From Escherichia coli (GTDB lineage: Bacteria; Pseudomonadota; Gammaproteobacteria; Enterobacterales; Enterobacteriaceae): a stretch of 64,000 nt of DNA. The stretch's first letter is position 1, and each line of letters starts with the position of its first letter. The stretch is taken from assembly GCF_003991155.1 (NCBI RefSeq), contig NZ_CP031293.1. One strand, given 5' to 3'. This document shows positions 36,001-39,000 of the stretch, piece after piece. Position numbers: made by a program.

Positions 36001-39000
36001 CGTCAGTCCGGAGACGACAGTCGGGTTATCTCAGAGTGCCTGAGATATTGCCTGGTTGGAGATCACTTCAGGGACTCTGCGCATTTTTTACGGCGTGGTT
36101 AATCCGTATGAACGAAACCATACGGAGATTTAACCATGACCTACAAATACAACCCCTTCTGGCAGCAACGTATTCGTGAGACGGTGCGGCACGCACTGGA
36201 TGTTCATCCCCGTCTGACGGCATTGCGGGTTGATCTGCGTCTCCCGGATGTACCGGCAGCAACGGACGCGGCTGTGATATCCCGCTTCATCAATGCCCTG
36301 AAAGCCCGAATCGACGCTTACCAGAAACGTAAGCATCGGGAAGGTAAACGCGTGCATTCCTCGACCCTGCATTACGCCTGGGCCCGGGAGTTCGGGGAGC
36401 TTAAAGGCAAAAAACACTATCACCTGCTGCTGCTGGTCAACCGGGATACCTGGTGTCGTGCCGGCGATTACCGCGCTCCGGGGTCACTGGCCGGAATGAT
36501 TAAACAGGCGTGGTGCAGTGCCCTGGGAGTGGATGTCGGGTGCCATGCCACGCTGGTGCATTTTCCGGCCTGGCCGGCGGTGTGGCTGGAACGCGATGAT
36601 GATGCTGGTTTACGGGATATGCTGAAGCGTGCTGACTATCTCGCGAAAGAGTACACCAAAGTCAACGGTACCGGTGAGCGCAATTTTGGCTGTAGCCGGA
36701 GTTGAGCACGACTGGCGCGCCAATATCCGGCAAACCAAAAGTATGGGTTGTTGTCTGGCGGCAACGATGTATCCACTCGCCCACTGACTGTTTTTTACGT
36801 CAGTGTTCCATTGTGTGACAACCACAGTGCTGTAACAGCAACCAGCCTGCTTTACCCAAACTCCAGTCCAGATTTTAACTGAACCGCCATTCACACCCTG
36901 ACCACGCTGCCCGTACCGGGACGGCTGTTGCCTGCGTGTCGTCTGACGGTAAGGAACATATACTATGTACGCAAAATCCTTTCTCGCTCTTGATAGCAAC
37001 GGACGTCTGACGGGCGCCCGTACTGCACAGGCCGCACCTTATGCTCACTACACCTGCCACTTGTGTGGCAGTGCACTCAGATACCATCCGCAATACGACA
37101 CTGAACTTCCCTGGTTTGAACACACTGACGACAGGCTGACAGAGCACGGTCAACAGTGCCCTTATGTCAGGCCGGAGCGCAGAGAAATACAGTTGATTAA
37201 ACGTCTGCAGCAATTCGTACCGGATGCCTTACCCGTGGTGCGTAAAGCCAGCTGGCACTGCAGACAATGTCACCACGATTATTATGGGGAGCAGTACTGC
37301 ACAAACTGCCAGACCGGAGGATTCAGTATTCCCCGGACAACTCAGGAGGAAATATGCGAATTCTGAACTGTTATATGGCGAATGACAGCAAAGGCCATTT
37401 TGTTACGGCGAAAGAAGCTGCGAAGCACAACCGACAGGACGTTTTGTGCTGTGTGTCCTGTGGATGCCCGTTAACACTTCAGCGGGGCAATGACGGACAA
37501 CCACCGTGGTTTGAACATGACCAGATGACTGTCGCTGAAAAAATCCTGCTGCGATGTACCTGGCTTGACCCGGCAGAGAAAGAGGCCCGTCGTTTGCATC
37601 TGCAGGGCATGACGGTTCCGGATTATACGGTGAAGGTGAGAAAGTGGTTTTGTGTGATGTGTGACGAAGATTATGAGGGGGAAAAGTGCTGCCCACGCTG
37701 CGGTACCGGGGTATACAGCAGGGCGTGGGGGCGGCAGGAGGTGCCGTCGGAAGATGCCAGGGCTGATAATCCGTTACAGAGGCTGTAATGGTTGCCTCCG
37801 GAGCAGTTTGCGGTAATGCCGTTCCCGGGAATGGATTGCCAGTGCGGGGACTGTGGAGCTTAATTCCGGTGTTGGTGGCCTTTCCGTTGATTTTGAGCCA
37901 ACAGCCCTCCTGTGACTGACAGGCTGCCTCGTCATTCCATTCGTATCTCCAGTAACAGGGGGTTGTATTGTATTTTAATGTGCCGGTTCAGGCGTGCGTT
38001 TCCCGGCGCGTCTGCACCGGCTTAACCAAATTCAACAGGGATAAAATAGTGTAAATAACCGAAGTATTACTTGAAGAATCGGGGGAAGCATCCGGGGTTT
38101 TATTCAACAGGCATGGGAGGCTCCGGCTCTGACAGACATTGTACTGTGGAATGTTGTTACAGGTTGGGGCGGCAACCGTGCCAGGAGACCATGAGCCGTT
38201 CACGGCATTAAAGGCCACACTTCAGTCGTTTACATTCCCTGTGGTGGCAGGCATCTTCCGTTAAGGCGTCAGAGCGTTACCAACGTTATGTTGTCATGGC
38301 TCACCTTTCATAGTCGATGCTTATCTGGTGACTGAAACTAGCCGCAGATAAAGAGTGTGAAGTTGATACCATGGAGTGGAGTGACGTGCAGGCAGGAGAT
38401 TCGCTCTATGCAGGGTTGTGAGATGAATTCAAACCGGCTGTCAGCGCCAGTAATATTTGAAGATTCGTCCGGTTGTTATCCAGTGTGCATTAAAAACCCA
38501 GACATTATGGACAATACAACGGCTTCCATAACAGGGAGGAGCCTGTTTATTATCCGGGCGTAATGACTAACCTTTGTGGGCTTTTTCCCGTCGTGCTTTT
38601 AACGTTGAAGGCATTTTCTGCCTGCCGATTCAGGACAGCGACAAAAGCCATATCAGACTATTGGTCAATGATGACCAGCGTCTGGAGTAGATGATAAGCC
38701 AAATTGATAAACTGGAATATGTGATGAAAGTGCAACGTAATCAGTCCAATCCGACGATGTTTAACAAGAGTACGGTGTTTTTTCAGTAAGTCATTCGTCT
38801 TCTGAATCAGGTGTAATGATCTTTACAGAAGCATTCCGGCAGTGCGTAACATAATCTGCCGGTAACGGACGCTCGCTAATCAGAACATCAAATGCAGAGA
38901 GCGGTGCGAGGCTGGCAGAGGCTACTTCATCGAACAAGGCGTGGCGGGCGAGCAAAATTTTCCTTAGTCCACGGGCCATCGCTTTACGCTTAGTGGCAAG

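Follow-up and report, generated by a model that had tools for sequence, protein, structure and literature searches.

The interval 37789-38790 of the window (the whole stretch of Escherichia coli DNA that was analysed, 64,000 nucleotides long) is very probably non-functional scar DNA, which consists of four pieces and lies between a convergent zinc-ribbon gene pair (plus strand) and deoQ (minus strand). The first piece is island backbone and takes in the 3' flank of the zinc-ribbon pair and the DNA upstream of the backbone gene that comes next. That gene, a member of the PF27752 family, is the second piece: it was already dead in the ancestral long allele, which carries frameshifts and stop codons, and in the allele found here its second codon is in addition a stop and 305 bp are missing between direct repeats of 8 bp. 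An orphan spacer of about 290 bp forms the third piece. The fourth is the 3' end of ilvN, 79 codons long and interrupted by both a frameshift and a TAG codon. We infer that none of the interval is expressed to any purpose. The ilvN pseudogene is already annotated in RefSeq and the acquisition of the operon next to it has been published; the present analysis adds a description of the left junction at base resolution and of the allele with the 305-bp deletion. The meaning is accordingly small: one gene-free stretch is explained as a second pseudogene, a spacer and the tail of an ilvN that RefSeq marks as dead.

The sequence-only reading of this DNA had found no convincing genes in the interval and had judged it to be probably decayed DNA where modules join. 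Genes are indeed absent, and only short ORFs are present. The longest encode 76 amino acids on the minus strand, where the ORF crosses the junction of the 305-bp deletion, and 68 amino acids on the plus strand; non-coding DNA of equal length would yield similar ORFs. Over 37700-38900, many complete E. coli genomes are 100% identical, including Combat2C1, ECONIH2 and MS 200-1, and the 100%-identical RefSeq genomes carry a single annotated feature between 37789 and 38790, the pseudogene "acetolactate synthase small subunit" (38563-38789). The description as decayed junction sequence holds as well, since two pseudogene remnants, the PF27752 island gene and ilvN, lie here together with a spacer, and the interval contains the exact meeting point of the island backbone and an acquired ilvN'-deoQKPX-uhpA' block. 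The proposed comparison with homologous junctions in other strains was carried out; it resolved the gene remnants, lesions, breakpoints and synteny, and supported decay. A fragment of a known gene had been regarded as evidence against that diagnosis, and such fragments do make up about 45% of the interval; they sharpen the diagnosis and do not overturn it.

The second zinc-ribbon gene, in which domain matches identify DUF7828 and Zn_ribbon_11, occupies 37354-37788 on the plus strand and is followed by a non-coding 3' flank (37789-37928), which travels with the zinc-ribbon pair. The next 120 bp (37929-38048, plus strand) are a conserved upstream region of the PF27752-family gene, a putative promoter or 5' leader, and show 70-77% identity to the DNA immediately 5' of family members, complete or partial, in other islands of E. 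coli. With a wider query of 774 bp, the best match of 1189 records fell between 60 and 80% identity. In strain RM10386 the identity is 98.5% as far as 38051, from where an IS66 element follows. The zinc-ribbon flank contains a 16-nt palindrome at 37819-37834. The repeat search listed one 12-nt palindrome and two short two-copy families of direct repeats, one of them beside the deletion junction. An insertion sequence or MITE remnant was considered and rejected, as terminal inverted repeats and transposase homology were both missing and the plasmid search gave no transposase-annotated match.

The PF27752-family pseudogene extends from a GTG at 38049 to its original stop codon at 38262-38264 on the plus strand, and carries a TAA at codon 2 (38052-38054). 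Homology to the family extends over the whole length of the gene, whereas an intact reading frame is lacking. When the window itself was searched by tblastn, an N-terminal piece (E = 3e-7) and a C-terminal piece (E = 0.008) were recovered. Between them, 305 bp have been deleted between two copies of the 8-bp repeat CAACAGGC, of which the single copy left at 38105-38112 marks the junction; the long alleles of five other loci (L004, L005, L007, L020 and L036) have these 305 bp in place between two CAACAGGC copies. The deletion would have arisen through slipped or illegitimate recombination at the 8-bp repeat. Most deoK-linked metagenome copies retain the 305 bp, and the deletion-junction allele occurs in 221 of 5426 complete genomes, which makes the junction a convenient lineage marker.

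The long alleles reveal what the gene was. In RefSeq they bear a 45-aa ORF, named either "UCP030791 family putative phage-derived protein" or "hypothetical", whose start is equivalent to 38049 and which corresponds to the N-terminus of a family of 170-182 aa. A 178-aa family protein (from L006) aligned by tblastn with the long allele across stop codons and frame changes (E = 4e-21), and another member, P0070, gave E = 6.5e-24; at least three frame changes are needed to read through the long allele, which also contains several stop codons. A collinear copy in NCTC10444 is 67.7% identical at the nucleotide level, and its C-terminus and stop codon match 38139-38264, the protein ending in ...EPFTALKNKLRLLTRPVVADLFR there and in ...EPFTALKATLQSFTFPVVAGIFR here. 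The family search yielded 338 proteins, and PF27752 was present in all of the best 120 of the 338. Names within the family vary among "inovirus Gp2 family", "UCP030791 family" and "hypothetical". The Pfam and NCBIfam profile libraries used here gave no match for the intact members, in which YagK_YfjJ_C (PF11726) was not detected.

Downstream of the dead gene lies the orphan spacer (38265-38551), which in E. coli is always linked to ilvN'-deoQ. Of 5426 complete E. coli genomes, 1589 contain this segment, which is unannotated in all of the matches listed. Among 73 metagenome matches to the spacer, 72 are from E. coli and linked to deoK and one is a plasmid variant, so that no new context appeared. 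A search against phages gave no match to 38265-38551. Within the spacer, a 130-nt block (38347-38475) is 75% identical to positions 3001-3131 of locus L015, which are intergenic DNA between a DEAD/DEAH helicase gene and trbC. The plasmids with this block are E. coli plasmids of IncF/I type, while the remaining plasmid matches proved to be mislabelled chromosomes. As the block recurs at such identity in plasmid intergenic DNA, the spacer is not simply random sequence.

It might be supposed that the spacer is the degraded 3' end of a donor ilvB together with the 5' end of ilvN, so that the ilvN remnant would be full length and the junction would lie further left. On inspection, ATGGACAATACAACG at 38508 looks similar to the start of ilvN, ATGCAAAACACAACT (MDNTT/MQNTT), "CYPVC" in the spacer resembles "VYPMV" of IlvB, and the diversity of 38476-38551 is as high as that of ilvN'. 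However, comparison with seven genomes gave no significant match between the spacer and the end of ilvB or the beginning of ilvN: when 38282-38551 and 38440-38551 of both alleles were locally aligned with the 400 nt upstream of ilvN codon 18, z did not exceed 1.8 relative to shuffles. Neither blastx nor blastn found an IlvB match in the spacer, and the identity to K-12 falls sharply at 38552, from 89.5% to background. This origin of the spacer is therefore scarcely credible, and the left edge of the acquired block is placed at 38552.

The ilvN remnant (38552-38789, plus strand) is a 5'-truncated pseudogene covering codons 18-96 of the small subunit of acetohydroxy-acid synthase I and ends with the native TAA at 38787-38789. 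Over 239 nt its identity to K-12 ilvN is 89.5%, and a blastx alignment gave 60/69 identities (E = 3e-38). The assignment to ilvN follows from this homology and from the synteny with deoQ, whereas a complete frame of 96 codons downstream of ilvB is missing, as ilvB and ilvN codons 1-17 are absent here. Two lesions interrupt what is left: a 1-nt deletion between 38586 and 38587, which causes a -1 frameshift at codon 30, and an in-frame CAG>TAG change at 38688-38690 (codon 64). Both are also carried by the divergent E. coli allele, which shows that they are old. The segment is thus a pseudogene fragment and not a functional ilvN.

Just past the TAG, ORF32 (38691-38789, plus strand) begins at Met65 and comprises IlvN residues 65-96. 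This is the 33-codon ORF of the sequence-only reading, which had placed it at about 38696-38797 and described it as overlapping the 3' end of deoQ. The ORF exists, but it consists of 32 codons plus a stop, and no overlap is present, since a single base pair separates its end from the deoQ stop codon (38791-38793, minus strand).

Two further short ORFs can be read on the plus strand. ORF43 (37788-37919; 43 codons) is unsupported and lies in the zinc-ribbon flank, and its ATG overlaps the upstream stop codon (TAATG); ORF68 (38357-38563; 68 codons) lies largely in the spacer. A case for one of the three ORFs as a real small protein could be built as follows. ORF43 would give a hydrophobic peptide, might be coupled to the zinc-ribbon gene via the TAATG overlap, and is open in all variants seen, its tail excepted; ORF68 is open in both alleles and is predicted by gene callers; and ORF32 has an SD-like GGAG 3 nt upstream. 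The following results speak against it. The amino acid identity of ORF43 among variants is 87-98%, compared with 97-99% for the adjacent zinc-ribbon gene at the same loci, so that it evolves faster than its genuine neighbour; about 6 non-synonymous stand against 4 synonymous changes, the tail is frameshifted in a poly-C run, and no ORF43 homologue follows a diverged zinc-ribbon pair. In ORF68, the codon changes between alleles are mostly non-synonymous (9 versus 5 synonymous). An exhaustive HMMER search of 1.8 billion representative proteins found only its own E. coli copies and repeat-driven noise, to which the two candidate relatives P0204 (a tandem-repeat ORF) and P0208 (a repeat-rich protein of 1220 aa) belong and were therefore rejected. 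For ORF32, the SD spacing is too short, the start is ATG in this allele only and GTG in the other, and the frame is simply part of the dead ilvN. None of the three is called by PGAP. Variant and allele comparison found no purifying selection on ORF43, ORF68 or ORF32, and a real small protein among them is extremely unlikely.

It is likewise very unlikely that a functional non-coding RNA or a cis element resides in 38105-38475 or in its 130-nt block shared with plasmids; one candidate would be a 3'-derived small RNA or an antisense RNA made when transcription of the zinc-ribbon operon or of deoQ reads through. The observation that draws attention to this part is its low diversity. Among 37 haplotypes, diversity is 1.4-2% in 38105-38475 and 4-8% in 38476-38789, and the two main alleles diverge by 2.7% in 38105-38475 compared with 6-7% at deo 4-fold sites (binomial P ~3e-4 to 1e-3). 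The occurrence of the 130-nt block on IncF/I-type plasmids at 75% identity points in the same direction, as does an RNAalifold consensus from three sequences, in which 5 of the 35 proposed plus-strand pairs are compensatory. Moreover, a study of the related PAI in strain AL862 reported small RNAs (PMC3326304), which may count in favour, although the main text of that study, as far as it was available here, does not mention deoQ, deoK or ilvN (PMC3326304).

The low diversity, however, also spans the C-terminal part of the dead PF27752 gene. The same two alleles differ at 1 of 917 nt in deoK and at 12% of 4-fold sites in deoQ, which indicates that the module is a recombination mosaic. Constraint was therefore rejected as the cause of the low diversity of 38105-38475, and recombination history accounts for the pattern. 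Signals expected of an RNA gene were searched for as well. A permissive scan with Rfam 15 (E <= 1) over 34000-40000 on both strands gave no match. Promoter-like (sigma-70-like) sites numbered 0 against 1.5 expected by chance, and terminator-like sites amounted to three weak hairpin + T sites against 1.3 expected by chance. The fold z-scores of the two strands are +0.33 and +0.28, the minimum free energy being no better than that of shuffled sequence. In the permutation test, in which the structure of one lineage was evaluated in the other, island copies being set against the plasmid copy, pairing was preserved no better than with permuted substitutions (P = 0.95, 0.36 and 0.46). Thus neither a promoter and terminator of its own nor a stable or conserved structure, by which a small RNA gene is generally recognised, was found in 37789-38790. 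The interval lies downstream of both convergent units, so that no promoter is needed in it. That the 370 bp of 38105-38475 are a selectively maintained non-coding element, be it a small RNA or a cis-acting site, travelling with the deoK module is accordingly very doubtful. The provision for a small RNA or small protein made by the sequence-only reading consequently finds no support, whether in Rfam matches, promoter-like sites, folding, conserved structure or ORF constraint, and scar DNA remains the preferred reading of the interval.

The right side of the junction belongs to a block whose arrangement recurs elsewhere. The gene deoQ (38791-39576, minus strand), identified by its ORF and by RefSeq annotation, encodes the DeoR-family repressor of the deoxyribose operon and is convergent with ilvN', from which it is separated by a 1-bp gap. 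At the far end of the module, 43163-43298 (plus strand) comprises K-12-like ilvN-uhpA intergenic DNA and a 5' remnant of uhpA of about 21 codons, with the uhpA ATG at 43237. This end is 85.8% identical to the K-12 intergenic region and uhpA start over 141 nt (blastn), UhpA residues 3-21 correspond to 43242-43298 (tblastn) before the homology stops abruptly, and in a chimeric-query search genomes of K-12 type match from 43163 on.

A synteny scan with DeoQ as query, taking one genome per species, led to six loci, from Pseudocitrobacter, Citrobacter amalonaticus, Raoultella terrigena, two Enterobacter genomes and one Proteobacteria metagenome bin. At all six loci, an intact ilvB-ilvN is convergent on deoQ, and nucleotide homology to the window extends from 38552-38554 through deoQ, deoK, deoP and deoX to 43158-43303. 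The order in Salmonella enterica is uhpA-deoX-deoP-deoK / deoQ / ilvN-ilvB-ivbL-tisB, and its locus (L091) has the same 1-bp gap, with deoQ ending at 6786 and ilvN at 6788. Synteny of ilvN-deoQKPX-uhpA elsewhere, together with the two broken edges here, argues that the block was excised from such a locus. A block of about 4.75 kb (38552-43298) was thus cut from the ilvB-ilvN / deoQ-deoK-deoP-deoX / uhpA chromosomal locus of another enterobacterium, with one breakpoint within ilvN and one within uhpA, and the ilvN tail came along as a hitch-hiker with the deo block. The broken flanks ilvN' and uhpA' in this way tie the deoK module to the ilvN-uhpA chromosomal locus. No case of deoX beside an intact uhpA, as in the native locus, occurs among the 5426 complete E. 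coli genomes (0/5426); one candidate for such a native copy, P0125, turned out to be an island copy.

The operon is usually stated to have come from Salmonella enterica. The identities of the flanks qualify this statement. The ilvN' remnant is 89.5-90.3% identical to K-12, 81-83% to Pseudocitrobacter and 75.6% to Salmonella, and the uhpA end is 88% identical to K-12, so that the flanking remnants together show 88-90% to K-12 versus 75-83% to Salmonella. Salmonella as the direct donor is hence unsupported, given 75.6% for ilvN' compared with 89.5-90.3% to K-12. The deo genes themselves are 71-84% identical to all comparison genomes examined, and the closest DeoQ protein found outside E. coli is 84% identical. 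Judged by these identities, the block probably came from a lineage that has not been sampled and that is closer to Escherichia than S. enterica is.

Three known systems can be set beside this arrangement. In the chromosomal ilvBN-deoQKPX-uhpABCT locus of Salmonella enterica and other Enterobacteriaceae, gene order and orientation are like those found here, and both edges of that locus are kept in the window, as ilvN codons 18-96 and uhpA codons 1-21. Unlike the native locus, however, the copy here lies in a genomic island, has lost ilvB and 17 ilvN codons, and contains a broken ilvN and a cut uhpA. The deoK operon of E. coli, which is considered to be horizontally acquired (PMC5382810; PMC7545054), is carried on islands such as PAI I/II AL862 (pheV/pheU), and it is the same deoxyribose-utilisation operon that is found on ExPEC/DEC islands; the present stretch is one allele of this PAI AL862-type arrangement and not a separate entity. 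Finally, the family of the dead gene often carries the same "inovirus Gp2 family" label as the YagK/YfjJ genes of islands of the CP4-57/CP4-6 type, and the backbone here is of the same kind as in those islands, with YfjI, an AlpA-like HTH protein, YagK/YfjJ and the zinc-ribbon pair, whereas the copy described here, in contrast to the YagK/YfjJ genes of those islands, is a pseudogene.

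On the zinc-ribbon side of the feature, positions 36136-37788 hold a YagK/YfjJ ('inovirus Gp2') gene and, after it, a tandem pair of DUF7828 + Zn_ribbon_11 paralogues whose stop and start codons overlap. A diverged version of this trio is also held by other islands (L003 and L007), and the backbone gene after the zinc-ribbon pair likewise carries a Gp2-like label (PF27752). Just 3' of the zinc-ribbon gene stop lies a near-perfect 16-nt palindrome, CCGTTCCCGGGAATGG (37819-37834), which is not followed by a T-run.

In the PF27752-family pseudogene (38049-38264), the annotated GTG is directly followed by TAA as the second codon (38052-38054), while the long alleles closest to this copy have CAA, not TAA, at that codon. 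The NCTC10444 copy (L017 around 4047) also carries TAA as its second codon, though it is only 68% identical to the window copy. The shared TAA may be a coincidence, caused by a single C>T change. Alternatively, the annotated GTG may not be the true start, because some members of the family reach 12-20 residues further upstream.

Further towards deoQ, a 130-nt block (38347-38475) shares 75% identity with intergenic DNA of E. coli IncF/I-type plasmids (L015 3001-3131; L056), where it sits between trbC and a DEAD/DEAH helicase gene, which in turn adjoins a DNA methyltransferase gene. Neither a conserved structure nor a conserved ORF was found in the 130-nt block.

The left neighbourhood of the deo block varies by strain (comparison loci L004 6151-7170, L002 3746-4974, and L003 5355-7514), and its variants include IS3, IS1 or IS66 insertions, a malX-agaR-side context, and a BCCT/AcuR context. 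In strain 90-9281, IS1 truncates deoQ itself. The left junction is a rearrangement hot spot.

At the far end, K-12-like ilvN-uhpA intergenic DNA is retained together with a uhpA 5' remnant (43163-43298), which starts with ATG at 43237, spans ~21 codons, and carries a 1-nt deletion; a transposase gene adjoins the point where this homology abruptly stops. The deoQKPX module thus lies between two broken core genes, with an ilvN remnant at one end and a uhpA remnant at the other.

When the two main E. coli alleles are compared (window vs. L005 and L002), deoK (39876-40796) has only 1-2 differences in 917 nt, whereas deoQ (38791-39576) differs by ~12% at 4-fold sites and deoP/deoX by 6-8%. This contrast marks a sharp recombination mosaic or a sweep within the 4.4-kb operon.

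The flanking remnants (38552-38789 and 43163-43298) share 88-90% identity with E. coli K-12 (L008), against only 75-83% with Salmonella enterica (L091), and the deo genes show 71-84% identity to their counterparts in every comparison genome examined. Taken together, these identities point to a deo block donor nearer to Escherichia than to S. enterica, and the cited view that the deo operon originated from S. enterica fits poorly with them.
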